Part shown: piece after piece, positions 1 through 22,646 of the stretch
Layout of the letters: every line of letters starts with the position of its first letter
Position numbering within the stretch: position 1 is the stretch's first letter
Assembly: GCA_003142915.1 (NCBI GenBank)
Contig: PLNZ01000273.1
Span: 1 to 38,552 of the forward strand
Direction: 5' to 3'
DNA: 38,552 bases
Source of the DNA: Ignavibacteriales bacterium
Lineage (GTDB): Bacteria > Bacteroidota > Ignavibacteria > Ignavibacteriales > Ignavibacteriaceae
The notes under the pieces: generated by a model
Seen by the model: only the letters and a program-made list of their open reading frames with translations
The model's database searches: none
Told to the model about the DNA's origin: nothing
Position numbers and translations under genes: made by a program

Positions 1-258
1 AATATGCAAGATTTCAATAAATAATGGTCTAATATTTCCTTAAAAATAACCTTATTTGCTACATCTTGTGTTTTCGTAACAGGCTGGATAGGATCGGCGG
101 AACGATATTGGCTATGGTAAAACATACTGTAAGTTTACCCGAAGGACTGTGTGCGCAGTATTTAATAAATGATAATTGAAGGGACTTGTCTTTCATCATG
201 GTGCGTGCTGTATTTCTGAATCAGATGAAGGGAATAAAAAATTATTTTTTGAAATTAT

Positions 259-2175
259 TTAAATATTTACAGTCTCTTTGTATTCATACTTTTCTATATC
301 ATCTCTCTTAATATTATAGTGCTTAAGTAGTTTTAGTGTTTTTTTATTTTTAATTTCTGGATATGATTTTCTGAAGTCTTCATTTTCAATCATTGTTTTA
401 ACTTTTTTCAATTCAGAAGATTCTATATTTTTAAATGCTTCACGCCACTTATTTGTATAATCTAATTTTTCTTCACATATTTTGCGATAAATAATATATG
501 GTTCGGGCATATATAAGAGTTCTCTGAACTCTGTTAAGTTCTCTCCAAATGCTTTCTCAAAAAAACTTCTACCCTTACCATCATTGTTATTTGGAGGCAC
601 AACAATGCCTTTATTGACATTTAATATAGCTTGAATGGCTCCAAGAAATTTTTTGTTCCATTTTGGTCCAACATAGTCCCTTTTTTTTGCTTCTTCCCCA
701 TATATTGGAATATATTTCATCGGAAATGAATATATGTGTAAATCTAATTTTTCACATAAGTCGATGTTTATCTTTAATCGTTCATAAAGATCTTCTGGAG
801 AATCCTTGTAGTTGTAAAGTATGTAATTAGACAGTCTCTTAATGCCATATTGGGCTGATAATTCTATAGCTTTCACATATGGCGCTTTCATTTTGATATC
901 ATCAAAAGCAATTCTTAATGGATTAATAGGTATCTCACTCAGCAGTTTCATTTTTTCTTCAGTAACAAAATAACAATCTGTACCTTGATTAAAGTCAACA
1001 TATCTTGGCATAGGTTTTTTTGAACGCATACGTTCATATGTGTCTTTTATTTCAGGATAACATGAAATTAAATTTCCTTTCGTTGTTGTATCGCTGCTCA
1101 TCAAAGAATATTTATCTAATATATTATAGAAATTTTGAGCAGTTTTTCCTTTTAACCTAATAAGTATTTTATGAATGAGCTTGTAAGATTTTCTTATATA
1201 AGCCTTATCATTCAATCCTTTTTTTAGATTTTCTATTGAAATCTGCAACTGGTTAGGTTCAATATAAACAGCGCCTTCTTTAAAGCCCATTTTTTTTATT
1301 TCTTTAATGATATTATCAAATTTAGGTGAGGCAAAAACATTATTGTCCATTAGTATAAGGTTCTGTTGATCTCCATAAACCTTTTTAATATGATTAAATT
1401 TTACAAGCGCAGGTACTTTTTCTTTAAATATAGGTTCAATTTTAGGCACTGCGCAGAAACCACATTTATTCACGCATCCTCTTGTCATGTGTGTGTAATA
1501 GGCACTTGTATTTGAATACTCATAGTCTATCTCATCCATTATTGAATAATCCAATGGAAGATCGTCAATGATTAGGTTAACGCTTGGATCAAGAGTAAAT
1601 GGTTTATCGAGCAACCCTTTGAATGGTTTTATACCTGTTTCTTTTTCGATTTCCCTGGGAAGAAGTGACGCCATAATCCCGCCGACTTTTAATTCATTTA
1701 GATCCTTGACGAGATATTTAGAAAATTCGATTGTCTTGATAGTAATATTCCAATAAAAGGTGAATAGTGTTGTAACACAAACCCTATCCCATTTGGGTTC
1801 TTGCTTATATTTTCCTTGGATATAATATGATCTGTAGTATTCCAAACAATCTTTAATTAGTGGTCTGTTTTTTGATTGGACAATATAGTCCTTCTCCAGA
1901 AGAGTCTTCTTCCCGAAACATATACGATCAGTTATACTTTTTTTTTCTACAGACCAATTGATTGAATCATCAATTCTTTGAAGTTTTTCAATGCACTCAA
2001 TGGATATTTGATCAAGTATGAACTTTTTTAGATCTCCCTTATAGAAAGTCACATTATCACCTAACTTCCTATGGTAGGTTGCTATTTTCATTAACCCTAT
2101 CGGTGGATACTTATTATGGTAATTTGGTTCTAATAGGAGAACCTCTCTTTTTTTTTTATTCAAATTTTTCATCAA
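259..2175 (-). CDS. Radical SAM protein with N-terminal B12-binding-like domain (class B type)
   Basis: 638-aa ORF. CxxxCxxC cluster motif in HMTRGCVNKCGFCAV. N-terminus LLLEPNYHNKYPPIGLMKIATYHRKLGDNVTFYKGD resembles the Rossmann-like B12-binding domain of class B rSAMs. Start overlaps the stop of the upstream GHKL gene by 20 nt. Confidence 0.75.
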   Translation of the reverse strand: MMKNLNKKKREVLLLEPNYHNKYPPIGLMKIATYHRKLGDNVTFYKGDLKKFILDQISIECIEKLQRIDDSINWSVEKKSITDRICFGKKTLLEKDYIVQSKNRPLIKDCLEYYRSYYIQGKYKQEPKWDRVCVTTLFTFYWNITIKTIEFSKYLVKDLNELKVGGIMASLLPREIEKETGIKPFKGLLDKPFTLDPSVNLIIDDLPLDYSIMDEIDYEYSNTSAYYTHMTRGCVNKCGFCAVPKIEPIFKEKVPALVKFNHIKKVYGDQQNLILMDNNVFASPKFDNIIKEIKKMGFKEGAVYIEPNQLQISIENLKKGLNDKAYIRKSYKLIHKILIRLKGKTAQNFYNILDKYSLMSSDTTTKGNLISCYPEIKDTYERMRSKKPMPRYVDFNQGTDCYFVTEEKMKLLSEIPINPLRIAFDDIKMKAPYVKAIELSAQYGIKRLSNYILYNYKDSPEDLYERLKINIDLCEKLDLHIYSFPMKYIPIYGEEAKKRDYVGPKWNKKFLGAIQAILNVNKGIVVPPNNNDGKGRSFFEKAFGENLTEFRELLYMPEPYIIYRKICEEKLDYTNKWREAFKNIESSELKKVKTMIENEDFRKSYPEIKNKKTLKLLKHYNIKRDDIEKYEYKETVNI

Positions 2176-3694
2176 TCTTGCATTTAAGATTTTCAGCTAA
2201 TTCTTTATTTAAAACGTCATCAATAATTTGAAATATTTTAGATATCAGCTTTCTCTCATTTTTTGATAGTTTACTATACTTATCTGTTCTGAAAGTCATT
2301 TCACCAATCTTTTTTTTGGTTGATGTACTATCTGAAACTTCAAGCTCCTTTTCTACTATTCTAGAGAATATTTTTTTTATGGGGTCTTGCTCACTTTCAA
2401 ATTTAGCCTCCATTTTTTCAAGTAATTTTTTTCCGTCTTCAGCTTTTTTTCTCTTTTGTTCAACCTCATCTTCTAGTCTTTGTTTGTCTTCTTTACTTGT
2501 AATTCCCTTTTTCACCACTTCATCTATTTCTTTCTTCTTATTGCGAAAACTTATTATTGTATTTTGAGCGCTTCTTATTTTTGAAGCTGCATTAAATAGC
2601 GGTTTAAGTTCTGATTCAAATATTTTTTTTAATTCATCTTCAAATTGGAATAAACATTCATTTTCAACAAAATAATCTCTTCTGGAATTTGGAATAAGAT
2701 CTTGGTTAAACGCATGTATTTCACCAATAAAATAAAAATTGTTCTTTTTCTGTTTGTGCAATCTAGCAAGAGTATCTGCTGAGCCAATTTGAATATTATC
2801 TTTTCTTAATCTAAGCCCTCTCGCCAGATTTGCTTCGGGCAATGCTCCATTAAAGGTTGACAGTCCATACCATCCCCAACCCAATAATTCACTTTTATGA
2901 CTTTCTATTCTACAATTTTTAATATCGAAAATATTATCAATTCTTCTTTTATTATCATCATATATGCTGGTAGTGTATGCTTTATAAATCTGATCCGCAT
3001 TTACAAAGATTTTATATTCGTTAATATTTAGTCCATTTTCTTTCAGTTTGTTGGAAATAGCATCTTTAAAAAGGAATCTTGTATGGAATGGGGCAGGTGC
3101 AACCATTTCCAGATAATCAGTTATTGCCTTTTTATCAAATAAAGCATCATTACTGACTTGCTCTAATGTTACCTTGAAATAGTGTTTATCAATGTCTTCA
3201 GGTTCGATATCAAAAGCTGTTACTCTATCTATTACATGGGATGCTTCTTCTTTCTGTGTCCTGTCATTTATTATCTTTTTCAGTTCTTTTGCATCCCACA
3301 ACATAATTGATTTTGATTTTTCACCTTTAAAAGATGTCTCAAAAGTTAGCTGCTCACAATATCCTAGACCTCCAAGTCTACCTATACCCCTGAAACCTCG
3401 ATCAACTCCTCTCTTCTTTGTCGATTGTGCAATATTGCGTAAAATATCTGATGCCTCATTAGATTTTATTCCAGTGGCATCGTCTTCAATACTTATTTTT
3501 CGCTCATTTTTATTGATATTTATCCATACGTTTCCGCCTTGTGTCGTAGCTATAATTCCACTCTCGATTGCCTTGTCAATCTGGTCAACCGCATTTTGGA
3601 TGTACTCTCTGAAAATAAATTTTGAATCCTCATACATTCCTGATGTAAGTGATTCAATAACGTCTTTGCCTATTGTTGTTTTATTTTTATCCAT
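2156..3694 (-). CDS. GHKL-superfamily ATPase (Hsp90/MutL/MORC-like, HATPase_c_3 type) with K/E-rich coiled-coil C-terminus
   Basis: 512 aa. Bergerat-fold motifs: N-box EYIQNAVDQIDKA, G1 ISIEDDATGI, G2 RGFRGIGRLGGLGY. The C-terminal third is K/E-rich (EDKQRLEDEVEQKRKKAEDGKKLLEKMEAK). Overlaps the upstream HerA-like gene by 8 nt. Confidence 0.7.
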   Translation of the reverse strand: MDKNKTTIGKDVIESLTSGMYEDSKFIFREYIQNAVDQIDKAIESGIIATTQGGNVWININKNERKISIEDDATGIKSNEASDILRNIAQSTKKRGVDRGFRGIGRLGGLGYCEQLTFETSFKGEKSKSIMLWDAKELKKIINDRTQKEEASHVIDRVTAFDIEPEDIDKHYFKVTLEQVSNDALFDKKAITDYLEMVAPAPFHTRFLFKDAISNKLKENGLNINEYKIFVNADQIYKAYTTSIYDDNKRRIDNIFDIKNCRIESHKSELLGWGWYGLSTFNGALPEANLARGLRLRKDNIQIGSADTLARLHKQKKNNFYFIGEIHAFNQDLIPNSRRDYFVENECLFQFEDELKKIFESELKPLFNAASKIRSAQNTIISFRNKKKEIDEVVKKGITSKEDKQRLEDEVEQKRKKAEDGKKLLEKMEAKFESEQDPIKKIFSRIVEKELEVSDSTSTKKKIGEMTFRTDKYSKLSKNERKLISKIFQIIDDVLNKELAENLKCKIDEKFE

Positions 3695-5354
3695 TTTTAA
3701 ATTGCTTATAAACCGGGTTTGGGAATTTTATATTTAATAAAGACCTGAGAACGGGATTTTGAATAATATACTCACCCTGTGGCAAACGGGTCATCATTCC
3801 TTTATAAACAGTGGGCAGATACCTGTAATCATTTTTTGATACTTCAATTGCATTTGTTCTTCCATACGCATGAGTAGAGCAATTGCCTTTCACCCTGTCA
3901 TGAATTGCACTTTTAAATTGCTCAGCGGAAAATAAGATTAACCCTAATGATCGACCTCTCTCGGTAATTTCGATTATTTTTCTTAATATTGGGGAATTCT
4001 TAGGCACATCTCCTGAAGCATATTTATTTAATTCATCAACAAAAATAACAATCTTTGAAGGTATTTCATCTGGTTCTCTATCTCCAACCTGCCCTAATTT
4101 CATCTCATATATACTATTAACAACGTCACCAAAGACAAAGGCTTGCATATCTTCACCTAATTTTGCGATGTCAATGACATAAACATCATCCTTTTTTATT
4201 TTTTGAGTTATATGTTCTCTCAGTCTGGTTTCGTTCTTTTTTGGATCTACCCTTTTGGCAAAGATTGGATTGGTTAGTGATTTTTTAATTATCCGAAGGA
4301 ATTTTCGCCAACTTAGTACACTAATTGATTTGTCTTTCCCGGAGGCATTTTTTTCAGTGTAAGATTTAACTTCTTCTACAAAATCTCCCCAACTTCTAAT
4401 GCCTCCAAAATTAGCTTCTCCGTTAAGAATTAAATTGATAATCGAACTCATTGTTTCCTGAGGATCATCAATATTGGAAAAAAATAGTTCCATGCAATCT
4501 TTGTCTTCTTCATAGAGGTATTTGTATTTGAAAGCTTTTTCAGCATCTATTTGTGCCTCTACATCTTTCTTTTTTGCATAAGTATTTGTCGAATCATCCT
4601 TATCATATGGATAGAAATATGTTGCATTCTTAAAAGGTTGATCATCTAATTTAAGATTGCGGTACAGTTCCTTATCTTTTTCAGATAATTCATCATTCCG
4701 CTCATCGATGGCTAGTAAATCTCTGCCTTTAATGTTAAACAATACAAATGCAACACTTTCATTTTTGGGAATATCTCTTTGCAAATATCTCTGCTGGACC
4801 GCCTTAATCAAAAACATGCTATATGAGGTTTTGGCTGCTAAACCAGAAATGCCAGATATATTCAAGTGTGCTCCTTCAGGTCCTAATAAAAAATCGGAAT
4901 TAAGAAAAACCGGAAGTCTAATCTTATCTTTTGCTTCATACATCTCTATATATCCACATGCTAACGGATTCTTTACTTCATCGAGGCCTAACGCCTTTTG
5001 CACCTCTTTTTCATCACCTAAGCTGACTTCACTGCCATCTAGCACGGGAGTATATATATCTTTAGTGTTGCCTATAACTTTAGCTTTCACGAAATTTAGT
5101 CCAACTCTTTGTGTATTAGTTTTATATGATACATCACCAAAATCGCTTGAAATGTAGCTTGCTAAATAGCTTGGAGCATCGGTTATATGTGAAATTTCTT
5201 CAACTACTCCGAAAGTGTAAGAATCTTGTATGTGTTTTGCTTTTATAACATCAAAAGGATTTAGAATTTTTTCTTTGTCAGTCCAAAAATAGAATTCATC
5301 AATTGTAGTCGGAATTTTTTCAGTCGCAGCAACTCTACCTATTAATTTAGCCAT
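3687..5354 (-). CDS. HerA/FtsK-like (DUF87-type) P-loop ATPase
   Basis: N-terminal barrel-like segment KLIGRVAATEKIPTTIDEFYFW. Deviant Walker A GISGLAAKTS, Walker B KIVIFVDELNKYA, then LILFSAEQFKSAIHDRV as in HerA-type ATPases. ATG at 5354 with AGGAGA 7 nt upstream is preferred over the TTG at 5381 used in the ORF track. Confidence 0.7.
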   Translation of the reverse strand: MAKLIGRVAATEKIPTTIDEFYFWTDKEKILNPFDVIKAKHIQDSYTFGVVEEISHITDAPSYLASYISSDFGDVSYKTNTQRVGLNFVKAKVIGNTKDIYTPVLDGSEVSLGDEKEVQKALGLDEVKNPLACGYIEMYEAKDKIRLPVFLNSDFLLGPEGAHLNISGISGLAAKTSYSMFLIKAVQQRYLQRDIPKNESVAFVLFNIKGRDLLAIDERNDELSEKDKELYRNLKLDDQPFKNATYFYPYDKDDSTNTYAKKKDVEAQIDAEKAFKYKYLYEEDKDCMELFFSNIDDPQETMSSIINLILNGEANFGGIRSWGDFVEEVKSYTEKNASGKDKSISVLSWRKFLRIIKKSLTNPIFAKRVDPKKNETRLREHITQKIKKDDVYVIDIAKLGEDMQAFVFGDVVNSIYEMKLGQVGDREPDEIPSKIVIFVDELNKYASGDVPKNSPILRKIIEITERGRSLGLILFSAEQFKSAIHDRVKGNCSTHAYGRTNAIEVSKNDYRYLPTVYKGMMTRLPQGEYIIQNPVLRSLLNIKFPNPVYKQFKNG

Positions 5355-5381
5355 GATTCTTCTCCTAACAATTTGATACAA

Positions 5382-6542
5382 CTAAAACAGGTTAAGGAAT
5401 TGTACTTCACTAATGTAATTACTTTTAATATATTTCTCAGTGAGATAAACGGGATATAGGTGATTTGCCCACCTAGTATCTAATCCATAACATGTTGGAT
5501 TACGTTCATTAACGAGATTAGCGCTTATAAGATCGATCTCATCTGAATCTAACCCTTTTTCTTGTTCCTCATCTGAAACAAGAATCTTTTCAACCTTTAC
5601 AACGCCGTCAAAAAGGCCAACCGTCCTTTCAGTTGATCTGATTCGCAGATACCAAATACAAAATTCAACACCAGGAGCTCTTTCATTTGTATACCTGAAT
5701 GCCTGCGTTCTATGAAATAAAGGTAGTTCAGCAATTCTTTTTGCCAAAGTCTTATGGCGTTTATCTTTAAAAAGTTCAGGGTTAAAAGTTTTTGAGACAC
5801 CAACTACACATCTATAATTACTTTTGATTGCTGAGAGGTCTCTGTAATCGTCAGTTCCTATTTTTTTATATTCTATTGATCCATCTTTAATCAGATATGA
5901 TTCATTATTGAGCTTTTTTTCTTTAACAAGTTGTACCACCATTCTTTTTTCAGCTTCAACCATTTCATCTTGTATTTTAGCTATCCCTTTATTTTCATAT
6001 TTTTCTCCCTCTTTTAACTCTACATCTGGATAGCTCAGCACTTTCTGAAATGACATCCCTCTTTTTTTAATAACACTAAGATTATTTATCTTGTCTGCAA
6101 GTGAATTAAAAAATAGAGTTTTCTTATCGTCTTTATCAGCACAATCAGGCAAGACTAATACGATTTGCTTTTCAAGAAGGGATGATTTGAATATATCTGG
6201 TTGGGATCGTTTACAACAACCCACTAGAATCTGCCCAGCAATTATGGGATATATACGTTCACCATAAGAAATATCATCTACTTTGTAAGTCCTTCTGGTG
6301 CCATCCAGAAAATATCTAAAGAGAGGTTTATTATCTCGCATAATTTTATTAGCTAAGTCTTCTACTGATTTGCTTGTTCTTATGGTTTTATCTGTTTCAC
6401 ATATTTTATCTGGGCTCATGATGATAACTCTATTATCGTCATAAACAACAGTTGGGACTTCTACACCTTCGAAAGAATACCTGAAGGACTTATAATATGT
6501 TCCACCAGTATTTTCCGCTATAAAACGTAGGATCTCATTCAT
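5382..6542 (-). CDS. NurA-like nuclease (putative, RNase H-like fold)
   Basis: 386 aa, first gene of the operon, abutting the HerA-like gene. Acidic motifs FLDGTRR, IQDEMVEAE, YLIKDGSIEY, GVSKT and C-terminal HLYPVYLTE resemble NurA motifs. The call rests on weak motif recall plus the classic NurA-HerA pairing. Confidence 0.45.
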   Translation of the reverse strand: MNEILRFIAENTGGTYYKSFRYSFEGVEVPTVVYDDNRVIIMSPDKICETDKTIRTSKSVEDLANKIMRDNKPLFRYFLDGTRRTYKVDDISYGERIYPIIAGQILVGCCKRSQPDIFKSSLLEKQIVLVLPDCADKDDKKTLFFNSLADKINNLSVIKKRGMSFQKVLSYPDVELKEGEKYENKGIAKIQDEMVEAEKRMVVQLVKEKKLNNESYLIKDGSIEYKKIGTDDYRDLSAIKSNYRCVVGVSKTFNPELFKDKRHKTLAKRIAELPLFHRTQAFRYTNERAPGVEFCIWYLRIRSTERTVGLFDGVVKVEKILVSDEEQEKGLDSDEIDLISANLVNERNPTCYGLDTRWANHLYPVYLTEKYIKSNYISEVQFLNLF

Positions 6543-6602
6543 TCAAAATAATCCTTCTTTTTTCTGAGAACTCAAGGAACATTAATAATATAAATGTGAT
6601 AA

Positions 6603-6632
6603 TATATACTTCTTAAAATAATTTGAAGTCAA
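6603..6632 (-). promoter_or_regulatory. Candidate sigma70-type promoter of the NurA/HerA/GHKL/rSAM operon
   Basis: On the minus strand: TTGACT, 18-nt spacer, TATATA. It lies about 60 nt upstream of the 6542 start, which has an AGAAGGA Shine-Dalgarno. Confidence 0.3.
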
Positions 6633-6756
6633 GTATTAAAACATTATAGAATCTATCTTATTATTTCACAGTAGATATCATATACAAATAGTGATAAATA
6701 AAAAAAGAGAGCATCTTAACAATTCAACACGGCTCTAAAAATCATGGATAACCATT

Positions 6757-7335
6757 ATGAACAACGACAATTATTTTTACAATTGTTCCAAGGAGTCCAT
6801 AGATTTTATCAATCCTAATCTTTATGACGAAATTATAAAAGTCATTTCATACTTACCTAAAAGACAGATTCAAACAGAAATAAATAATGACTTGTTTTGG
6901 TTACTGACATCCAGAGGATGGTCGTTTGATACTATAGGTGGAACATCAGATTTTCCACCGGAAGGAATCAATGTTAGAAATGTGACTATGTCAGAAACAA
7001 AGAATAACAATAATCGTTTCCTTTGTATTACATCAACAACATTAGATGCCTCTTGGCATTGTGATTTTGCAAGGGTATATGACTCTCAACTAGTTCAGAT
7101 TGAAGCTCAGTTTGGTAAGGTTGAATCCATGTTCAAAGACTTCTGTGGGTTCAGAATAGCAAGATACGAGAAAAGATTATCATTAGGAATAGAAATAGTT
7201 TTATCTGAACCATATGATTACTTCACACATAGAAAAAATGCTATAGGCGGAATGGCATACTTCAATATAGCAAAAAATACTTTGCCAGCAATTGGATTGA
7301 AATGTCCAATTTGGTTAATTGGGATAAAAGAATAA
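6757..7335 (+). CDS. BglII/BstYI-family type II restriction endonuclease-fold protein
   Basis: 192 aa. INPNLYDEIIKVISYLP resembles the BglII N-terminus (LNPQLWKEIEETLLKMP, as I recall it). CDFARVYDSQLVQIEAQFGK resembles the BglII catalytic D...E-x-Q segment (IDFGKRDTLVEVQF). Divergently transcribed from the four-gene operon. No methyltransferase is present in the window. Confidence 0.6.
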   Translation: MNNDNYFYNCSKESIDFINPNLYDEIIKVISYLPKRQIQTEINNDLFWLLTSRGWSFDTIGGTSDFPPEGINVRNVTMSETKNNNNRFLCITSTTLDASWHCDFARVYDSQLVQIEAQFGKVESMFKDFCGFRIARYEKRLSLGIEIVLSEPYDYFTHRKNAIGGMAYFNIAKNTLPAIGLKCPIWLIGIKE

Positions 7336-7499
7336 TATGCTGGGCATTATATGCCCGCGAACCATCCAAGCCAAAAGCCGATAAATAACCCAATACAAAT
7401 TCCAAATTTAAGATTAAAATCTCTCAGCGCTTTCAGAGCTTTTAAATTGTCTTTTATTTTTGTAATTCTTATATCTTCTCACATATCACAAAAAGTCAG

Positions 7500-7531
7500 A
7501 TGTCACAAAACTCCTCCAAACTCGCTATAAT
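7500..7531 (+). promoter_or_regulatory. Conserved module box: ATGTCACAAAA(n)AAACTCGCTATAAT (copy 0)
   Basis: Near-identical sequence recurs at 14886, 16354, 17465 and 18815. Contains a perfect TATAAT. The upstream TGTCAC is 19 nt away, which is non-canonical for a -35, so the box may also be a protein-binding or recombination site. Confidence 0.5.
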
Positions 7532-7565
7532 GAAAATACAGGTGAGGAAAGCAAGCTCGCCAGTC

Positions 7566-7593
7566 TTGACGAATCCCGCCTATCCTCTATAAT
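7566..7593 (+). promoter_or_regulatory. Candidate sigma70 promoter TTGACG-N16-TATAAT
   Basis: Near-consensus hexamers read directly. Followed by an untranslated stretch of about 300 nt before the 7895 ATG. Confidence 0.4.
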
Positions 7594-7894
7594 TCCAAGT
7601 TTCATTCTGCACCTTATCAAACCCATACATCTTACCCTTTGCGGCTTTACCGCCCCAAAGTGGCTTTATATGCCCTATAAGAAGCCTACGGTAATAAAAA
7701 AATCAAAACTGACATGGTTATAAAAATCTCGTCGGGAAGGACTTTTCTTTATTGCCTTTAGAATTCTTAGCATAACGACAAGCCAGTGGTAATAAAAAAA
7801 CGTACTTCACCAGTATAACTTACGCGGAGCATCTTTTTCTTGTTATCAACGGCTTTTTTTGTTCTCAATTTTTCTAATTCTTCACTCAAAATAT

Positions 7895-8191
7895 ATGAAC
7901 ATCCACAAACGCTTTCCCGTGGAGGAAATTTCTTTGGATGAACTGCGGGAGAAGGAGAATGACGAAGACGAGTCCACTTTATTCGAATATAAGTTGGGAC
8001 TCTATTGCGAGATGGATACCGATTATATTGGTATCAAGGCCGATCTCTCGCGACTCTTCAAACAAGGCTTTTTTGCCACGAATGAGAAAAGGGCGATAGT
8101 CAAAAAGCTGACCGAATGCCAGTTAACCCCCACCGAAAGGAAAGCCTTTCAGCGCGCCTTGGTTAAATTAAGAAATTTTTACCTAAACTGA
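7895..8191 (+). CDS. Hypothetical protein (possible HTH/sigma region-4-like C-terminus)
   Basis: ORF 7859-8191 with first ATG at 7895. C-terminus TPTERKAFQRALVKLRNFY loosely resembles a sigma70 region 4 ending. Its stop overlaps the next start (TGATG), implying translational coupling. Confidence 0.45.
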   Translation: MNIHKRFPVEEISLDELREKENDEDESTLFEYKLGLYCEMDTDYIGIKADLSRLFKQGFFATNEKRAIVKKLTECQLTPTERKAFQRALVKLRNFYLN

Positions 8192-8403
8192 TGCTTACTC
8201 TCGAACAAATGAAAAAACTGCTGGACGATCCGTCTATTCCCGACGAGCAGGTTTTGGAAATCCGCGACCAGCTTTATGCCTTGGCTGAAATCATTTATGA
8301 GAAATGGCAGCAGGACAAAGCGGCTGGGAAACTGCCGGGCAAAAACCCCCCGGAACTGGAAGATTGGTACAGTAGAAAAGACAGTATTACCGGCGGTAAC
8401 TGA
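8191..8403 (+). CDS. MLTLEQ-family small protein (divergent copy within the full element)
   Basis: 70 aa. MLTLEQMKKLLDDPSIPDEQVLEIRDQLYALAEIIYEKWQ aligns with the four downstream paralogs. Confidence 0.7.
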   Translation: MLTLEQMKKLLDDPSIPDEQVLEIRDQLYALAEIIYEKWQQDKAAGKLPGKNPPELEDWYSRKDSITGGN

Positions 8404-8485
8404 GGCTACTGCCGCTTAACCATTGTTGTTTTCCCGCACGGCACTTTTAACCAGTTAAAATGGCGTCCTATCCGTGTTTTATGTT

Positions 8486-8604
8486 GGGGCAAAGGGAGTC
8501 TGGGGCTTGTAAGCAGAGCATTACAAATCCCCAGCAAATAGCTTCGGACGCTCCGACAACACGAACCTATTTGCTGGGGCTTCCGCCCACAGACCCCTTG
8601 CCCC
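8486..8604. repeat. Imperfect palindrome, about 120 bp (candidate ori/oriT or structured leader)
   Basis: Perfect 13-bp arms CCCCAGCAAATAG (8529-8541) and CTATTTGCTGGGG (8567-8579). Outer arms GGGGCAAAGGGAGTCTGGGG (8486-8505) and CCCACAGACCCCTTGCCCC (8586-8604). Small CGGA-CGC-TCCG hairpin at the centre. Confidence 0.6.
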
Positions 8605-8617
8605 GTCTTCTTAAATT

Positions 8618-9241
8618 ATGGCAACAAAAAGAGACCTGATCAGGTGGTTTATCAAAGAGGTTCATTGGGCGACTCCCCGCAATGTTGCCTATTTCATGGA
8701 GGGCAGAGGAGGCAGCGACCGAAGCCGCGTCTATTCGTCGGAACTGTCTGAAATGCAGACAGTAAAAGACAGGACGCTCCGCCTCAAGCGGATCAGGAAC
8801 CAGGACGGCCACTTCGCCTATACGATGCTGTCCAAGACTTTGCCGACCTTCTTATTCAACCATGACGTTTGTGTTAGAAATATTATCGGAAAGTTTCTGC
8901 ACGACAGAGGAATGCAGGAGGTTTCTTTCGAGAAACCAGCCGACGCCTCTATCCGGCAGTACCGCTTTGAACTGGACAACGGCCACATGAGCGGCATCCA
9001 GCTCGAAGAAAAGTTGGTTAAGTATTACTCCCACCTCAACGTCCAACTCATTTTTATAATGCGGCACCGCGAATGTCCGCATCTCGAAGCCGAAAGGCTC
9101 AGGAAAGTATTTCAAATTTCAAGCAAGGTGTTTCCCCACCAGCCTAACAAGGTTTTAGGAGCCTGTTATACCAGCTACCTTGAAGACGGAACCGTTTTCA
9201 ATCGCAAAGGACAGGCGAAGCTAAAACCTTTTAACCATTAA
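8618..9241 (+). CDS. Hypothetical protein (207 aa)
   Basis: Long ORF in the GC-richer backbone, immediately after the palindrome. No motif recognised. Confidence 0.55.
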   Translation: MATKRDLIRWFIKEVHWATPRNVAYFMEGRGGSDRSRVYSSELSEMQTVKDRTLRLKRIRNQDGHFAYTMLSKTLPTFLFNHDVCVRNIIGKFLHDRGMQEVSFEKPADASIRQYRFELDNGHMSGIQLEEKLVKYYSHLNVQLIFIMRHRECPHLEAERLRKVFQISSKVFPHQPNKVLGACYTSYLEDGTVFNRKGQAKLKPFNH

Positions 9242-9265
9242 TCAAATTATTAGAAAGGAGGTTTT

Positions 9266-9457
9266 ATGTATTCACCCAAAATAAGTGAAGAGTTCATTCC
9301 CTATCTTTACCAATGGGCGAAAAGCGAAGGCGTCTCTATGACGGCCTTGGTTAATCGCATGATCAAAAATGAAATCGAAAATAATCAAAGAAAGGAGAAA
9401 AAAAACAATGACGAAAAAGATAAACGAAACCCTCTGTGGAATTCTCGAAATTTTTAA
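9266..9457 (+). CDS. Small DNA-binding-like protein (possible ribbon-helix-helix)
   Basis: 63 aa, AGGAGG 6 nt upstream. KISEEFIPYLYQWAKSEGVSMTALVNRMI has a strand-helix-helix pattern. K/E-rich tail. Confidence 0.4.
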   Translation: MYSPKISEEFIPYLYQWAKSEGVSMTALVNRMIKNEIENNQRKEKKNNDEKDKRNPLWNSRNF

Positions 9458-10196
9458 ATCCGGGCAGATACCCGAAGCCGTTTCCTATGCGGCCTTTCCA
9501 TCTTTCGATATTCCCTCTGAGCAGTGGAGTTACCTGAACCGCATTATTATGTGGCTGAACGGAACTCATGATGCCAGAGGCTACCGCCAATGGGAAGAAG
9601 TCGGGAGGCATGTTAAAAAAGGCGCAACCGCTTTTCACATTTTCGCGCCCCGGATGGTAAAGGAAAAGAAAGAAAACGGCGATGAAGATTTTAGTTTATT
9701 AGGTTTTCTGCAAGTTCCGGTCTTCTGTTATGAGGACACGGAAGGCGAACCGCTCAATTACAAGAAAACGGAGATCAACTCTTTCCACTTGATTGAGAAA
9801 GCCGAAGAATGGGGGCTGGATGTCCACGCCGTTTCCGGCAACGGCAGGTATTGGGGAGCATACAACGGGAAAGAAATAAAACTGGCCACACCCGAAGAAT
9901 CAGTCTTTTTCCATGAGTTATCGCACCACGCCCATAAACTTGTGCTTGGTGAACTCAAAGACGGTCAGGACTGGAAACAGGAAATTGTGGCTGAATTATC
10001 AGCCGAAGCCCTTTCAAGAATTTTCGGGCTTCAGTCAACGACTGGCAATTGCTACAAGTACATTGAGAGATACGCAGTTGAAGCCGGACTAACCCCCGTT
10101 ACCGCATGTCTGCAAGTTCTCAGCGATACCGAAAAGGTTTTAAAGCTGATCTTGCAGGAGGACAGGCCAGAAATCAAACAGGCGGGTAAAATGTAA
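9408..10196 (+). CDS. ArdC-like protein (ssDNA-binding N-domain plus HExxH metallopeptidase)
   Basis: ATG 9408 with AAAGGAG upstream. DARGYRQWEEVGRHVKKGATAFHIFAP resembles the ArdC/DUF1738 N-domain. FFHELSHHAH is an HExxH zincin motif. Confidence 0.5.
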   Translation: MTKKINETLCGILEIFKSGQIPEAVSYAAFPSFDIPSEQWSYLNRIIMWLNGTHDARGYRQWEEVGRHVKKGATAFHIFAPRMVKEKKENGDEDFSLLGFLQVPVFCYEDTEGEPLNYKKTEINSFHLIEKAEEWGLDVHAVSGNGRYWGAYNGKEIKLATPEESVFFHELSHHAHKLVLGELKDGQDWKQEIVAELSAEALSRIFGLQSTTGNCYKYIERYAVEAGLTPVTACLQVLSDTEKVLKLILQEDRPEIKQAGKM

Positions 10197-10200
10197 TTAA

Positions 10201-10590
10201 GCCGATATCGGTAGAACCCCAACGCAAAGCTAAGCCATCTTGGTTTACGATGGAGTCCTACCAACCAGCCTGAATCACAATGAGGGCTGAAAGGTGTTTG
10301 CTAGTAGCCCCTTTTAACGATTGAGGGCGAAAACCATTTGGTAGAAATACCGATAGGCCGATGCTGAAAAGGACTTTCGCATGGCAAACATGGAAAACGT
10401 GTTTTTGGCGAAAGAATGACACGCAATTCTAAAGGACTATGGGACTCCTGCCCTCGCAAGAGGGCTGGGAGAAGCCCATTGAGGCGAAGTCATTGCTTCT
10501 ATGCCGTAAGTCTAAGAAATTTTCATATCACAACTTATGGCATCAGGAAGGCAATGGATAAGATTGAGATAAATCTACCCACAGGAGGAA
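10201..10590 (+). ncRNA. Candidate structured RNA or replication-origin region (unclassified)
   Basis: About 390 nt non-coding, GC-richer spacer. GNRA-capped hairpin GCCCTC-GCAA-GAGGGC (10450-10465). 11-bp stem 10501-10511 with 10533-10543 (one G-U). Long-range pairing of GCCGATATCGGTA (10201-10213) with TACCGATAGGC (10348-10358). Confidence 0.3.
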
Positions 10591-10594
10591 AACT

Positions 10595-11368
10595 ATGAAC
10601 TACAAAGAAACTTTAAAAAGCATTGATACCGAAAAAGCTTTAGGCTTGATCGGCATCGAATTTGAGTCACAGGGAGCTTATGCGAAATTCGCTTGCCCTC
10701 AACCTAATTGTGACTGTAAAGCCGCGATCAAAGAATACGGCGACAAGAAAAATCTTTACTACTGCCCGAAGTGCAAATCAAGCGGCCATATCATTTCCCT
10801 GGTTATGAAAATAAAGGATATTGATTGGGATGCCGCTAATGAGTTTTTACTCAAAGCCCGCAGTAACCACGCCAAGAGGATCACAGAAGAACTCAATATC
10901 AACTATGAATTGTTTTATAACGATTTCATCAAGTCAAAGGGCATCGAAGAAGAGATGTGTAAGTTGCTTGAGATCGGAGTTCCCAAAGGCAAGACCATGC
11001 TTGCCGGAAGCGTCGCCTTTGCGGTTAGGGATACCAAAGGAATGAAAGTCGCCTATTACGGAATAAAAATGAAAGATGGCAAAGCGGTATTTCACAATAG
11101 CTTCAATCCCGAATTGTATCTTTACAATTTCTGCAACATTGATTTCAGCGAGCCAGTGCATTTCACAACTGATATGTTCCGTTGCGTCTATAACATTGAG
11201 AGTGGAAGGCAATGCGTCTGCAATTTCGGACTGCCCTATCTTTCCGATACACAGCTTGAACTTTTACATCAAGTAGAGCACATTGTTTTGCTCGTCGATG
11301 AACCACTTGTAAAACCGCTGGCAATTCAGATGGCAGAAAACAAAATGAATTACTTCCGGTTTGAATAA
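10595..11368 (+). CDS. Primase-related protein (CHC2-like zinc ribbon, degenerate Toprim-like C-half)
   Basis: 257 aa, AGGAGG upstream. FACPQPNCDCKAAIKEYGDKKNLYYCPKCKSSGHIISLV resembles the DnaG-type zinc-binding domain. The C-terminal half lacks a clear Toprim glutamate. Confidence 0.4.
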   Translation: MNYKETLKSIDTEKALGLIGIEFESQGAYAKFACPQPNCDCKAAIKEYGDKKNLYYCPKCKSSGHIISLVMKIKDIDWDAANEFLLKARSNHAKRITEELNINYELFYNDFIKSKGIEEEMCKLLEIGVPKGKTMLAGSVAFAVRDTKGMKVAYYGIKMKDGKAVFHNSFNPELYLYNFCNIDFSEPVHFTTDMFRCVYNIESGRQCVCNFGLPYLSDTQLELLHQVEHIVLLVDEPLVKPLAIQMAENKMNYFRFE

Positions 11369-11374
11369 ACAACA

Positions 11375-11410
11375 ACGGGCTGTCCTATCATGGATTAGCC
11401 CGTTTCTTTT
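11375..11410 (+). terminator. Rho-independent terminator; member of a repeated hairpin family
   Basis: ACGGGCTGTCC-TATCAT-GGATTAGCCCGT followed by TTTCTTTT. Near-identical hairpins occur at 16846-16883, 18003-18041 and 26653-26687, with a degraded copy at about 14443-14480. Confidence 0.7.
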
Positions 11411-11535
11411 GTCCTGAACAGAACTTGACCATGCAGTGATTGCCAAGACATATCGAATACTGTAATATTGTTCTTCTTATTTTTCTAATTCACACGACGA
11501 CAAACATCGACCTCATATTTATGGTTAGTTTTTCA

Positions 11536-11564
11536 TTGACATACAAAAATGATTTCCCTAAACT
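11536..11564 (+). promoter_or_regulatory. Candidate promoter TTGACA-N17-TAAACT
   Basis: Hexamers read directly, about 55 nt upstream of the 11619 ATG. Confidence 0.4.
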
Positions 11565-11618
11565 ACCTTTCGGTAAAAGCTAATTCTTGTTACCAATAAA
11601 CTTCAGGAATTGAATATC

Positions 11619-12548
11619 ATGAAAATGAGCAAAGTTTATGTGGCCTTGATGCTGGCTAGTCTTGCTTCGGGAGTTAGTGCACATGCCGATACTTACGGTA
11701 TGACGCAAACTCTTCCAAACAATCCATCTATGACGCAAACTCTTCCAAACACCAATCCATCGCCAATGCATAATCCCAGTAGTGTCCAAGTTACTGGACG
11801 CACGGGTATCGGTCATGCCAGTAGTGGTGTAAACGATGGGGGTATCGTCTATGTCAGTCCTGGACACAACTTCACTGTAGCTTCTGGCGGCAACACACCC
11901 GATGCCATGAACAGCATATTCGACAAGTCCTCTCAAACATCATGGTTTGCCTTTGCAAGTGGCATAGCATCAATCTTAGGACTAATGTTCACTTTGTACG
12001 GAACACAAATTAGAATGATACCATTTTCCTTGTATAGGTCATGCGTTTGGAATCGAGTCTTGCTAATATCCATTGGCATTGGCATCCTTGTTTTTGCAGG
12101 CATCAAATTTTACACTCAGACGGAGCCACCAGGACTCCCTCCGCTAAGCTGTCTATTTATGTTCTTGCATGGCGTGAATAATTTTTATACAGATATAGAT
12201 GGGAACAATGGAACAAACCTTTGGGCTATCATATTCGCCATAGGTGCGGTGATATCAACATGTGGTTTCTTTTACAACCCAATAAAACTATGCAAGTCAG
12301 TCCTGCGTCGGGAACATGATGCGTTGTTAGAATATAGAAAAACTCAGTTGTCATCTGTCCTTAACAGACAAAACTATGAAAACTTGAAGAGCCATGAAAA
12401 GCATCTGTATGACGATCTTAATGCTTTTCACGTTGAACTTCAAACAAGACTGATAGATACAATCTACGGGCAAAGCCTTATGCCAACTTATAGTCGCAGG
12501 ATGAAAAGCCATATTTGGCCTAACAAGCATATCGACGAGACGGACTAA
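11619..12548 (+). CDS. Secreted/multi-pass membrane protein with short tandem repeat
   Basis: Signal-peptide-like MKMSKVYVALMLASLASGVSAHA. Perfect 22-nt direct repeat (11700-11721 and 11730-11751) encoding MTQTLPN twice. Several hydrophobic spans. AGGAA lies 9 nt upstream of ATG 11619. Confidence 0.6.
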   Translation: MKMSKVYVALMLASLASGVSAHADTYGMTQTLPNNPSMTQTLPNTNPSPMHNPSSVQVTGRTGIGHASSGVNDGGIVYVSPGHNFTVASGGNTPDAMNSIFDKSSQTSWFAFASGIASILGLMFTLYGTQIRMIPFSLYRSCVWNRVLLISIGIGILVFAGIKFYTQTEPPGLPPLSCLFMFLHGVNNFYTDIDGNNGTNLWAIIFAIGAVISTCGFFYNPIKLCKSVLRREHDALLEYRKTQLSSVLNRQNYENLKSHEKHLYDDLNAFHVELQTRLIDTIYGQSLMPTYSRRMKSHIWPNKHIDETD

Positions 12549-12637
12549 CGCACAGCCTACCACACGTAACATTGATCAAAATATTTTTATTCGCATTTCG
12601 CTTTGCTCAAAAATCTATTTTATCATATAATTAATTT

Positions 12638-12750
12638 ACTACCCAAATCAAATTAATCTCCGATTTTTTTATCAACATCGTTGTCCTAAACGGACAGTCT
12701 GCCAATGATGTTGATCTTCGGAGAAACTGATTTGGGTAGTCAGACTGTCC
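12638..12750. repeat. Nested inverted repeats upstream of the recombinase gene (candidate att or regulatory site)
   Basis: A 12638-12650 pairs with A' 12728-12740 (13 bp). B 12657-12663 pairs with B' 12718-12724. C 12671-12679 pairs with C' 12707-12715. D GGACAGTCTG (12692-12701, in the loop) pairs with D' CAGACTGTCC (12741-12750), giving mutually exclusive folds. Confidence 0.6.
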
Positions 12751-12775
12751 TTTTAAGTTGTTAAAAAACAAAAAT

Positions 12776-14362
12776 ATGAAAGGAATAATTTATGTAAGAG
12801 TATCAAGCGAAGAACAAGTCAAAGGCACATCCTTGGAAAATCAGGATGAGCTTTGCCGTGCCTATTGTAAAAATAAGGGCATTGAGGTTTTAGGTATTTA
12901 TCGCGAAGAAGGAGCCTCAGCTAAAACAGCCCAGCGAGCCGAGTTTTTACGATCCATTGAATTCTGCCGGAAGAACAAAGGCAAGGTTGATGCTTTTGTA
13001 GTCTATAAAGTGGATCGGTTTGCCAGGAACACCGAAGATCATTTTTTCGTTAGAAAAATGCTAATTGAATACGGAGTGACTTTGCATTCCGTAACTGAAC
13101 CCATCGGCAACAATCCGGCAGAGAAATTTATTGAAACTGTTTTAGCCGGAAGCGCCGAATTTGACAATGCCGTCAGAGCTCAAAGAAGCGTGAGTGGAAT
13201 GATAGCCAAAATCAATCAGGGCATAACTCCTTTCAGACCGCCTATTGGCTATGAATGCCAACATGCAAGAAAAAGAGGCGAAAAGAAACTTGTAGCCGAT
13301 AAACCGGATACGCAAATATTCCCTATCATTCAAAAGGCATTACAAGAATTTTCCAAAGGAATATATACGCAAGTAGATATGATCCGGCTTTTAGATAAGC
13401 TGGGCTTAAGCAAAATCAGAGGCCAAAAAACAAGTCCGCAGTTAGTCAGTAAAATTTTCGTTAAGTATCTTAAATATTATGCTGGCATCATCGTGAATCC
13501 CTGGACTAACGAAGAAGTTCAAGGCATACACGAGTCGATGATAACCAAAGAAGAATATTTTAAAATACATTTTATCTTATCAGGAAAATCAAACAGAGTT
13601 AAAAGAATCAGGAAAAATCCTAATTTCCTATTGAGGCAAACTGTTAAATGCGGATGTTGCGGACAGCCATTAACTGGAAGCTGTTCAACTGGTAGAAACG
13701 AGAAATATTATTACTACCATTGTTTCAATAAAGAATGTTCAATGTACGGCAAGGCTATAAGCAAACAAAAACTGGAAGATGATTTTGTCGAATATCTGAA
13801 AGAGATTACACCAAAAAAAGATTTCTTGGATGTATTCAAGGCGGTTGTTTTGAGTTTGTGGAACAGACAAGATTTAGACTTAAAAACAGAAGCCCAAAAC
13901 TATGAAAAGCAATTGGCGGTATTAGATGGAAAGCGGAAAAGAATTTTTGAAATGCGGGAAGAAGGATCGTACACACCCGAAGAATTTAAAGAGCGAAAAG
14001 AAGAAATTGAAAATCAAATTATGGCAATAAAAATATCCTTGAATGAAACAAGGATTGATCAGTTTGATATTGAAGGCGTATTATCTTACGCAAATAATTT
14101 TATTGCCGATCTTGGTAGACAATGGCTTGATTTAGCCACTTCTCATTTGCGGTTCCAAAAAATGGTATTTCCGGAAGGAATTTCATATAAAAGAAATGAA
14201 GGATTTGGAACCGCCAAATTGGGGCTTATTTACGAACTTAACAGGACTTGTGGGACTGAAAAATCCCTTCTGGTGGTCTTTGCGTTCACCCATTGGAACC
14301 AGCTTTTGGCCGAATTGCGAGAATGGGAGAAAATAAAACAAGGTTTTGAACTTGTTTTATAG
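12776..14362 (+). CDS. Large serine recombinase
   Basis: Resolvase-type N-domain with catalytic-serine motif GIIYVRVSSEEQ and VDRFARN. Central recombinase domain. Cys-rich zinc ribbon CGCCGQPLTGSC...YYYYHCFNKEC. Coiled-coil-like segment. ATG 12776 preferred over TTG 12758. The last ~92 nt (14271-14362) are repeated downstream. Confidence 0.9.
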   Translation: MKGIIYVRVSSEEQVKGTSLENQDELCRAYCKNKGIEVLGIYREEGASAKTAQRAEFLRSIEFCRKNKGKVDAFVVYKVDRFARNTEDHFFVRKMLIEYGVTLHSVTEPIGNNPAEKFIETVLAGSAEFDNAVRAQRSVSGMIAKINQGITPFRPPIGYECQHARKRGEKKLVADKPDTQIFPIIQKALQEFSKGIYTQVDMIRLLDKLGLSKIRGQKTSPQLVSKIFVKYLKYYAGIIVNPWTNEEVQGIHESMITKEEYFKIHFILSGKSNRVKRIRKNPNFLLRQTVKCGCCGQPLTGSCSTGRNEKYYYYHCFNKECSMYGKAISKQKLEDDFVEYLKEITPKKDFLDVFKAVVLSLWNRQDLDLKTEAQNYEKQLAVLDGKRKRIFEMREEGSYTPEEFKERKEEIENQIMAIKISLNETRIDQFDIEGVLSYANNFIADLGRQWLDLATSHLRFQKMVFPEGISYKRNEGFGTAKLGLIYELNRTCGTEKSLLVVFAFTHWNQLLAELREWEKIKQGFELVL

Positions 14363-20132: not shown

Positions 20133-20220
20133 GGATTTCTTTTTCTCATGCGTGGCGCGCATTACCACTACGGATGCGTTTATCTCTGAACAGGAATAAC
20201 CAATTTAGGAGGAACTCAAT

Positions 20221-20565: not shown

Positions 20566-20587
20566 AGCCCATCGTGACTCCGATCGG

Positions 20588-22642: not shown

Positions 22643-22646
22643 AAAC

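Follow-up and report, generated by a model that had tools for sequence, protein, structure and literature searches.

A widespread and mobile NurA-HerA-GHKL-radical SAM gene cassette as a candidate anti-phage or anti-plasmid defence system

Organization of the locus

Here we analyse a four-gene cassette from an Ignavibacteriales bacterium, carried on a stretch of 38,552 nucleotides of contig PLNZ01000273.1 (assembly GCA_003142915.1), the whole of which is termed the window. The cassette is 6.3 kb in length and lies entirely on the minus strand. It encodes a NurA-family nuclease with an RNase H-like fold (gene 1, 5382..6542, 386 aa), a bacterial-type HerA ATPase/translocase (gene 2, 3687..5354, 555 aa), an Hsp90-like GHKL ATPase (gene 3, 2156..3694, 512 aa) and a radical S-adenosylmethionine (SAM) enzyme (rSAM; gene 4, 259..2172, 637 aa from the ATG at 2172, or 638 aa if counted from a TTG at 2175). 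An earlier interpretation made from the letters alone (the sequence-only reading) had placed these four open reading frames (ORFs) on the minus strand together with a divergent one at 6757-7335 on the plus strand, and all five are present at the coordinates claimed.

The four genes form a tight co-directional operon. The HerA and GHKL genes overlap by 8 nt (3687-3694) and the GHKL and rSAM genes by 17-20 nt (2156-2172/2175), in agreement with two of the three junctions that had been proposed. The third, at which the NurA and HerA genes were taken to abut at 5381/5382, is an artefact, because the longest HerA ORF (564 aa) begins at a TTG at 5381 while the real start is the ATG at 5354. This ATG has an AGGAG ribosome-binding site 7 nt to its 5' side, and gene callers also predict the 555-aa HerA on the identical contigs of the public assembly collection. 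The NurA stop and the HerA ATG are consequently separated by a 27-nt spacer, the arrangement being a tight co-directional operon all the same. The NurA ATG at 6542 is in turn preceded by an AAGGA ribosome-binding site. Upstream of the operon lies an AT-rich divergent intergenic region (6543..6756), presumably containing the promoter; several sigma-70-like hexamer pairs occur in it, but with no excess over shuffled sequence, so that no promoter is demonstrated. Scans of the window for tRNA and Rfam families found no RNA genes. The G+C content of the cassette is 30-34%, versus 42-49% in the adjoining mobile-element genes.

Identity of the four proteins

The assignment of the first protein to NurA, made in the sequence-only reading, is borne out by structure alone. 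When the AlphaFold2 (AF2) model (pLDDT 83.4, pTM 0.85) is compared by Foldseek with the Protein Data Bank (PDB), the best match is the D. radiodurans NurA (7f6d_G, E 3.1e-11, TM 0.53/0.60) and the second is T. maritima TM1739 (1zup, E 7e-8), with the next matches, to Argonaute PIWI and EndoV, lying at E > 0.01. By contrast, no Pfam family is reached at E <= 1, the NurA model PF09376 included; the single sequence has no NCBIfam, PADLOC or PDB-sequence match, and the family profile finds the D. radiodurans NurA (DrNurA) as its sole match among PDB sequences, at a marginal E of 0.34. Judged from its sequence, the protein belongs to a divergent NurA clade. In an alignment of 36 sequences D80 (in FLDGS), E198, D220 (in KDGS), D355 and H361 are invariant, making them candidate catalytic residues.

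For the second protein the assignment is firmer at the sequence level, with phmmer against PDB sequences giving the D. radiodurans HerA (7f6d_B, E 2.5e-32), with which it has in common the unusual P-loop 'NISGISGxAxKTSY' and the Walker B motif 'DELNKYA'; HerA is thus confirmed. The protein reaches no Pfam model and its only PADLOC match is a weak one, to mad8 (1.1e-7). The NurA and HerA genes are adjacent in the window and in at least 66 genome loci, and their divergences are correlated with r = 0.94. Genes 1 and 2 therefore resemble the D. radiodurans HerA-NurA pair (DR0837/DR0836, PDB 7f6d) in being homologous to it, adjacent and co-evolving, and, by analogy with the D. radiodurans and archaeal complexes, a HerA hexamer may feed DNA to a NurA dimer. 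The window-type pair differs from that of D. radiodurans in being tied to GHKL and rSAM genes (47/47 informative metagenome loci, see below) and in being horizontally mobile and located on mobile genetic elements, a context that gives no support for repair.

The nearest solved relatives being a repair complex, it is natural to ask whether the cassette is not a defence system at all but a DNA-processing or repair module of mobile elements, where HerA-NurA would carry out resection, the rSAM would repair lesions in the manner of the spore photoproduct lyase (SPL), and the GHKL protein would act like MutL. Consistent with this, the one well-established DNA-acting rSAM, SPL, is a repair enzyme, GHKL/MutL proteins coordinate repair nucleases, and the sequences of the cassette are highly conserved. 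We return to this explanation with the data on distribution and context.

The third protein is a GHKL ATPase, as had been called: it matches Pfam HATPase_c_3 (1e-10, 42.2 bits against a cut-off of 25), and its invariant residues R29, E30, N34, D37, D71, G75, G103 and G105 correspond to the Bergerat-fold motifs (N-box, G1, G2). Its description as MORC-like was not upheld. The best NCBIfam match is 'HSP90 family protein' (3.5e-9), the family profile against the PDB places the N-domains of HtpG/TRAP1/Hsp90 first (down to 2.8e-13), and neither MORC nor MutL is among the 60 PDB matches listed out of 150. On the basis of this profile comparison we replace MORC-like by Hsp90-like. PADLOC gives no match, and NCBIfam MzaB is reached only at 0.04. 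The C-terminal region is variable and K/E-rich. The GHKL gene is the fastest-evolving of the four (mean pairwise identity 0.385), with the C-terminal third the least conserved part, which fits a recognition or adaptor role.

The fourth protein is a radical SAM enzyme, as is supported by the cluster motif C234-x3-C238-x2-C241 (the CxxxCxxC pattern), invariant among homologues, by the fold, and by Pfam PF04055, which is recorded for many homologues; the window protein itself scores 1.7e-4 with Pfam Radical_SAM (22.3 bits), below the cut-off of 29.5. It also matches PHROG 9298 'radical SAM domain protein' (2.7e-40). The AF2 model (pLDDT 81) is predicted to contain an N-terminal Rossmann domain resembling a B12 domain, an rSAM barrel and a C-terminal helical domain. 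With Foldseek it aligns over 575-665 columns to MgmA (9ccb, E 2.7e-6, TM 0.36/0.51) and AprD4 (6fd2, E 6.5e-4), the TM values being low (0.31-0.51). Like these class B enzymes, it has a predicted N-terminal Rossmann domain followed by the rSAM barrel; its large helical insertions and C-terminal helical domain set it apart from them. Against PDB sequences, neither the single sequence nor the profile shows significant similarity to any solved rSAM.

Of the earlier designation as B12-type, only the architecture is supported. No Pfam B12-binding match is found at E <= 1, and the weak NCBIfam matches to B12-rSAM families (E >= 9e-4) are confined to the cluster-motif region, residues ~203-312. AprD4 has a B12-type domain and yet no B12. 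Because no B12-binding model matches and a domain of the AprD4 kind can be without cobalamin, 'B12-type' is to be read as a statement about architecture only.

The remark that the enzyme is not viperin-like proved correct, with no viperin among its PADLOC, NCBIfam or Foldseek matches. Prokaryotic viperins (pVips), which are ~300-350 aa in length and make ddh-nucleotides, are likewise radical SAM enzymes serving antiviral defence; the window rSAM shares no sequence or structural similarity with them, is 637 aa long and class-B-like, and always has a GHKL partner. Judged from the alignments, the motifs appear intact in all four proteins: the NurA candidate residues, the HerA P-loop and Walker B, the GHKL Bergerat motifs and the rSAM cysteines.

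Conservation and distribution of the cassette

Close relatives of the rSAM number at least 8,000 in the protein collection, are 54-60% identical, and are all labelled 'hypothetical'. They span Bacteroidota, Desulfobacterota, the Candidate Phyla Radiation (CPR) and an Altiarchaeales archaeon, and relatives occur also in Cyanobacteriota, Ignavibacteriota and Pseudomonadota, with the Bacteroidota including the human-gut and rumen genera Bacteroides, Prevotella and Alistipes. At 50% identity the rSAM superfamily comprises 445 clusters (E <= 1e-30). Among species-representative genomes at least 578 stretches encode rSAM relatives. From these, 84 loci were compared by tblastn with the window proteins, and all ORFs of 82 loci were clustered.

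In most of the 84 loci the NurA-like, HerA, GHKL and rSAM genes are found in that order. Clustering of all ORFs in the 82 loci gives only four broadly conserved families, namely rSAM (81 loci), GHKL (76), HerA (67) and NurA-like (66). The full order NurA-HerA-GHKL-rSAM is present in 66/82, while the flanking genes vary from locus to locus. In the reverse comparison, anchored on NurA, there were 533 relatives on metagenome contigs, the best 80 of which were examined, and all 47 informative loci among these 80, that is, those on contigs long enough, end with the rSAM (47/47). Three further look-ups of NurA relatives gave the same cassette in 3/3, including that on the complete chromosome of Methylovulum psychrotolerans. 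Besides this species, cultured hosts of the cassette are Alistipes putredinis DSM 17216, Dysgonomonas macrotermitis DSM 27370, Algoriphagus jejuensis JCM 16112, Runella salmonicolor and Carboxylicivirga mesophila JCM 18290.

The same gene order turns up in dozens of genomes unrelated to one another and is therefore far beyond chance. Over 41 canonical loci the mean pairwise identity is 0.62 for HerA, 0.54 for rSAM and 0.49 for NurA, besides the value for GHKL given above, and between the genes of the set the pairwise divergences correlate with r = 0.52-0.94, from which it follows that the four genes move together. The sequence-only reading would have been undermined had the four genes not been conserved together elsewhere; the 66/82 and 47/47 loci show that they are, in the same order across many phyla, and the neighbourhood comparison makes them one co-inherited unit. 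The cassette is a real, widespread and horizontally mobile four-gene unit.

Mobile context and the absence of a methyltransferase

The accessory and mobile setting that had been described for the cassette is found among the window neighbours, on the identical contigs, at other loci and on viral contigs. On the cassette side of the window, the genes at 9369-14362 look like the backbone of an integrative mobilisable element, with an ArdC-N-like gene (9369-10196), a CHC2 zinc-finger primase-like gene (10595-11368) and a large serine recombinase gene (12758-14362), all on the plus strand. Identical contigs are present in more than 100 blocks of the public assembly collection. Those that extend past the left end of the window carry IS21 istA/istB and a 1,583-aa nSTAND3 gene (L085-L089). 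A megablast of window positions 1-8000 against plasmids gave no match. In 72,556 plasmids, the GHKL family was found only in the 12 records that also have the rSAM, plus one record with a short fragment, so that the two behave as obligate partners.

At other loci the cassette neighbours include integrases, relaxase/TrwB, transposases, RhuM, Fic and VapBC-type toxin-antitoxin pairs, together with the PADLOC candidate families PDC-S01, S05 and S23. Fourteen full cassettes occur on prophage-like contigs of IMG/VR. Its carriers are integrative elements, prophage-like contigs and small islands. The statement that no methyltransferase is present holds for the 25 window proteins scanned, none of which has a methyltransferase Pfam family, with several smaller ORFs lying outside that scan; nor does a methyltransferase figure in the 25 Pfam families that occur most often in the genes immediately next to the cassette.

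These observations bear directly on the repair explanation introduced above. A sporadic and horizontally transferred distribution, variable flanks, and a location on prophage-like contigs and integrative elements are not what a repair module would lead one to expect, and the association of this NurA-HerA clade with an rSAM in 47/47 informative loci is unlike the behaviour of housekeeping repair genes. Moreover, as described in the next section, Menshen effector genes are found inside the operon, and PIN_8, DndB, restriction-modification and TIR-SLATT genes adjoin related systems. We consider a repair module of mobile elements improbable. The stricter version, that the NurA-HerA pair is the vertically inherited repair module of the lineage, is rejected because of the sporadic distribution, the variable flanks and the constant rSAM linkage.

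An observation at one locus only is noted here. Directly 5' of the cassette of Candidatus Vecturithrix granuli (L001, 439-5304) are QueC, thymidylate-synthase-like and dCTP-deaminase-like genes, and in the same stretch a second QueC gene, a SAM methyltransferase gene and a 343-aa gene of no assigned family, a set that resembles nucleotide/DNA hypermodification pathways.

Interchangeable nuclease modules around a GHKL-rSAM core

Comparison of the loci shows that the GHKL-rSAM pair is the invariant core and that the nuclease or motor modules joined to it are interchangeable, being NurA-HerA, the Menshen-type NsnB-NsnC, a PIN_8 nuclease with a GHKL of its own, or a DEAD helicase with ParB-like proteins; there are five arrangements. 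The majority have the window form, NurA-HerA-GHKL-rSAM (arrangement A). In arrangement B an AAA_15/21 ATPase, a ~286-aa protein and a second GHKL are inserted. The first two of these match Menshen NsnB (2.3e-69) and NsnC (4e-9) in PADLOC and occur in ~15-20% of the loci (L004, L006, L007, L011, L017, L020-L022, L024, L026 and L059, at about 6200-10000); the second GHKL occupies the position next to the NsnB-NsnC pair, and the sensor NsnA is absent. At L044 and in three metagenome loci the NsnB-NsnC pair stands between HerA and a single GHKL. This suggests that the input to a Menshen-like transducer-effector pair can be provided by a GHKL, alone or together with the rSAM, in place of NsnA.

In arrangement C the insertion consists of a more distant GHKL (GHKL') and a 333-aa protein, c4, while in arrangement D GHKL'-c4-rSAM stands alone, for example in the Altiarchaeales archaeon. 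The c4 protein (~333 aa) has no Pfam or PADLOC match and only a weak, sub-threshold NCBIfam one (PP_RS20740, 2.6e-5), and no relationship to DGQHR, ParB, PIN or NsnC emerges from hhalign.

Arrangement E belongs to a distant branch of the rSAM (~540 aa, 31-37% identity) that is carried by conjugative plasmids of alphaproteobacteria, where the order is DndB/DGQHR-rSAM-GHKL, the DndB being recognised by Pfam at 1.8e-11 and the GHKL matching that of the window at 1e-56. Alongside are a PIN_8-GHKL pair, a ParB-N protein and a DEAD helicase. Specifically, R. leguminosarum pR132505 (L090, 1936-13725) and N. aromaticivorans pNL1 (L091) have hyp338-hyp139-DEAD helicase-ParB_N-DndB/DGQHR-rSAM-GHKL, and also a PIN_8 (636 aa)-GHKL pair. 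The DndB/DGQHR-rSAM-GHKL arrangement recurs in seven IMG/VR contigs (L118-L122, L126 and L127), and no description of this plasmid system was found in the literature. In other virus-like contigs a ParB-like protein (hhalign 88.8%) is encoded directly 5' of the rSAM. Furthermore, a 791-aa protein (P0344, L218 1019-3394) is a fusion of a DndB/DGQHR-like domain (3.4e-35) to an rSAM; its gene lies in a defence-island setting, with an Eco57I-type restriction-modification enzyme, a resolvase, and SLATT and ThsB-TIR genes as neighbours, and with no adjoining GHKL on the 10-kb contig. To our knowledge, DGQHR/DndB/DpdB proteins have so far been recognised solely as partners of Dnd and Dpd, both of which are DNA-modification systems.

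The modular arrangement can be accounted for in more than one way. In CBASS, Thoeris, Pycsar and type III CRISPR, one enzyme serves interchangeable effectors. By the same logic, the rSAM could be activated by infection to make a small molecule derived from SAM or from a nucleotide, which would serve as a second messenger or be an antiviral nucleotide analogue, with the GHKL as the receptor or transducer that switches on its own nuclease, so that NurA-HerA would degrade DNA indiscriminately and kill or arrest the cell. This would explain why a single conserved enzyme is accompanied by several effectors with adaptors of their own (types B, C and D, and the plasmid PIN_8-GHKL pair), why GHKL and rSAM strictly co-occur, and why the type-A cassette has no obvious DNA-binding partner; moreover, modified nucleotides are what the prokaryotic viperins make, and these are the only rSAMs with a known part in defence. 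Although this is the main rival explanation, we think it unlikely that a signal of this kind is the mode of action, for the rSAM branch linked or fused to DndB/DGQHR and ParB-like proteins points to DNA, the rSAM is without similarity to viperin, GHKL ATPases are not known as small-molecule receptors, and there is no evident sensor to activate the rSAM.

Another proposal is that the rSAM is a protein maturase that modifies an operon partner (GHKL, HerA or NurA) or a phage protein, for example by C-methylation, and so regulates the nuclease complex. It is to be noted that the best structural match, MgmA, is a class B rSAM that C-methylates a protein glutamine, that tight translational coupling and the near-universal adjacency to GHKL suggest a physical complex, and that Hsp90-like proteins handle client proteins. 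However, the similarity to MgmA is weak and amounts only to the common class B architecture. NurA-HerA, NsnB-NsnC, PIN_8 and c4 all go with one and the same rSAM, so that a substrate common to these arrangements could only be the GHKL, and the DndB/ParB fusion and linkage fit DNA better. A maturase appears very improbable. Both the repair and the maturase roles are less consistent with the context than the role in defence considered below.

Several further proteins accompany the rSAM in particular lineages. In gut and rumen Bacteroidales a protein of ~350 aa, c8, is encoded directly 3' of it (L048, L050, L055, L057, L058, L060, L061, L063 and L067), for which the annotation searches gave no match; at L071, L073, L077 and L081 its place is taken by a protein of 830-970 aa whose domains include one resembling the RNA-polymerase alpha-CTD and one of sigma-70 region 4, and which weakly matches the PglW region. 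These two kinds of protein may be lineage-specific accessory or regulatory components.

Two other occurrences of rSAM relatives are recorded. Marinitoga camini virus 1 (KP836355, L217 5896-9722), a temperate Thermotogae phage, has a short rSAM-like gene (360 aa) that converges on genes annotated as HerA and NurA-type exonuclease; it lies near the phage resolvase, and there is no GHKL. In the Altiarchaeales archaeon (L002/L013, 13800-17057), 3' of GHKL'-c4-rSAM, a second and shorter rSAM paralogue with 32-35% identity to that of the window, together with a Mrr_cat-like gene, interrupts an apparently split deoxyhypusine synthase gene.

Function and proposed mechanism

On the evidence of its context, the cassette is probably an undescribed anti-phage or anti-plasmid defence system. 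The reasons are its mobility, its variable flanks, the Menshen effector genes embedded in it, and the PIN, DndB, restriction-modification and TIR neighbours of related systems; in addition, HerA and GHKL proteins have precedents in defence.

As to how such a system would work, the explanation that we prefer as a whole, with confidence somewhat short of even, is a restriction-modification-like one, and the mechanism itself, with the rSAM acting on DNA, is put forward more tentatively still. It may be described as follows. The rSAM, together with the GHKL ATPase, would perform 5'-deoxyadenosyl-radical chemistry on DNA, by which a chemical mark is placed on the resident DNA. The GHKL dimer would be an ATP-gated clamp, as MutL, TopoVI-B and MORC are, reading the state of the DNA and licensing the effector. 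The D. radiodurans and archaeal HerA-NurA complexes unwind and digest processively at DNA ends, and similarly the HerA hexamer-NurA dimer of the cassette would load on the unmarked foreign DNA, unwind it and digest it processively. In the multi-module variants, every nuclease module would have its own GHKL adaptor, with a single rSAM in common. The action of the rSAM on DNA is proposed because the only informative partners in its superfamily are DndB/DGQHR and ParB-like proteins, one of them fused to it, and the restriction-modification-like scheme is proposed because a conserved enzyme with swappable nuclease modules mirrors Dnd and Ssp.

In its most far-reaching form, the proposal is that systems built around GHKL-rSAM tell self from non-self in a way that would form a class of its own. 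A radical SAM DNA mark (e.g. C-methylation or some other change at an unactivated carbon) would protect the resident DNA, and the interchangeable modules NurA-HerA, NsnB-NsnC, PIN_8 and c4, each docked by an Hsp90-like GHKL of its own, would destroy the unmarked DNA; this we hold to be rather doubtful.

A number of points weigh against the defence function or the DNA-marking mechanism and should be stated together. First, the classical role of NurA-HerA is in the resection of DNA ends and in repair. Second, the high identity across phyla (0.62 for HerA and 0.54 for rSAM) is unusual for defence genes, although recent horizontal transfer could account for it. Third, the association with defence islands is qualitative, being drawn from neighbour families rather than statistics, and PADLOC-DB 2023 recognises none of the four proteins except for the weak match of HerA to mad8. 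Fourth, the link to DndB and ParB is found only in the branch 31-37% identical to the window rSAM, while the type-A cassettes, including that of the window, have no DndB-like gene. Fifth, we know of no rSAM enzyme that is established as a DNA-modifying, 'self-marking' enzyme, so that the central step of the scheme is without precedent. Finally, orphan methyltransferases are common in restriction-modification, and many orphan modules would be predicted here also, whereas orphan rSAM or GHKL-rSAM modules are few (L025, the ParB-like-rSAM pairs and the P0344 fusion).

Comparison with known systems

In SIR2-HerA and DUF4297-HerA, a hexameric ATPase of the HerA family probably forms a complex with an effector and controls it (PMC11472057, PMC11514289, PMC11291478). 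The cassette is similar to these in combining a HerA-family ATPase with an effector enzyme in a mobile operon. It differs in that neither the window nor the related loci contain a SIR2 or DUF4297 partner, in that the window HerA matches none of their PADLOC models, and in that the effector is the cognate NurA, to which an obligatory GHKL and rSAM are added.

Menshen consists of the sensor NsnA (a DNA-binding ParB-DUF262 protein), the transducer NsnB and the nuclease effector NsnC (PMC12065111). With NsnB-like and NsnC-like genes inside the operon of the ~15-20% of related cassettes mentioned above, the cassette likely shares, by analogy, the sensor/transducer/effector logic of Menshen. The window cassette, on the other hand, has no Nsn genes, and the variants that do are without NsnA and have a GHKL paralogue and the rSAM instead.

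Dnd (DndABCDE with DndFGH or Pbe), Ssp and Dpd (DpdA/B/C with DpdD-K) also have an enzymatic core with interchangeable nuclease or helicase modules, and proteins of the DndB/DGQHR/DpdB type are operonic with the distant rSAM branch and fused to the rSAM in P0344. By contrast, none of the catalytic genes of these systems is present in the cassette, the putative modifier is an rSAM, an enzyme type with which no DNA mark is known to be associated, and the window cassette is without a DGQHR gene.

In the MORC/paraMORC restriction-modification systems, and with MzaB of Mza, a GHKL ATPase is likewise encoded with nucleases or helicases in mobile operons and has been proposed to be an ATP-driven clamp coupling DNA recognition to cleavage. 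The window GHKL is nearest to Hsp90/HtpG, not to MORC or MutL, and the paper on the MORC/paraMORC systems describes no association with rSAM, HerA or NurA (PMC2292703).

That the four-part combination belongs to no named system, as had been suspected, is borne out against PADLOC-DB 2023 and the open-access literature. For three of the cassette proteins there is no model in PADLOC-DB 2023. No description of the cassette was found in the open-access literature searched, including papers on radical SAM with HerA, and it goes unmentioned in the MORC (PMC2292703), Dnd-reappraisal and Menshen (PMC12065111) papers. Within this scope the system is undescribed, and it is built on the known NurA-HerA pair and on a modular logic of the defence type. 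That its GHKL-rSAM core represents a categorically new mechanism, by way of a radical SAM DNA mark, has a substantial chance of being true, though one well below even.

If the cassette functions in defence, it would be the second case, after the viperins, in which immunity draws on radical SAM chemistry, by a mechanism unrelated to theirs, and would give the sporadic bacterial NurA-HerA pair of the window clade a role other than repair. If the rSAM acts on DNA, the DNA modification and the enzyme activity would both be new, as would the coupling of modification status to nucleases via Hsp90-like GHKL clamps. Should the reading in terms of a DNA mark be true, this would be the first radical-SAM-based DNA modification-restriction system, with a new epigenetic mark in the genomes of some 570 or more species of bacteria and archaea.

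Other features of the window

The divergent gene at 6757-7335 (plus strand, 192 aa) had been regarded as a BglII-fold nuclease paired head-to-head with the operon. Its product scores 19.6 bits with Pfam Endonuc-BglII, below the cut-off of 26, although PF09195 is assigned to the identical protein in a precomputed table; the stretch 'VQIEAQ' may be a D...E-x-Q motif, and no match is found among PDB sequences. No homologue occurs in the 84 genome loci, in plasmids or in viral contigs, and on this ground the gene is rejected as a fifth component. The BglII-like protein is a local neighbour only, because it is conserved with the cassette at no related locus, and the supposed pairing is not part of the system.

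Further along the window, at 19695-24518, are a MarR regulator and two fused ABC exporter genes, the start of this region having ~47% G+C, and a Fic/DOC protein with a C-terminal winged helix-turn-helix (wHTH) is encoded at 25220-26314 on the minus strand. A second cluster of enzyme genes then follows on the plus strand, at 26893-37329. It comprises an rSAM-SPASM protein (26893-27993), a prenyltransferase/squalene-cyclase-repeat protein (28415-29254), a GT4 glycosyltransferase (29242-30336), another rSAM (30351-31535), a PHP-domain protein (32016-32879), an HD/HD_assoc (dGTPase-like) protein of 915 aa (32846-35593) and an asparagine synthase homologue (35593-37329), and could be a natural-product or nucleotide-modifying cluster or else another conflict system.

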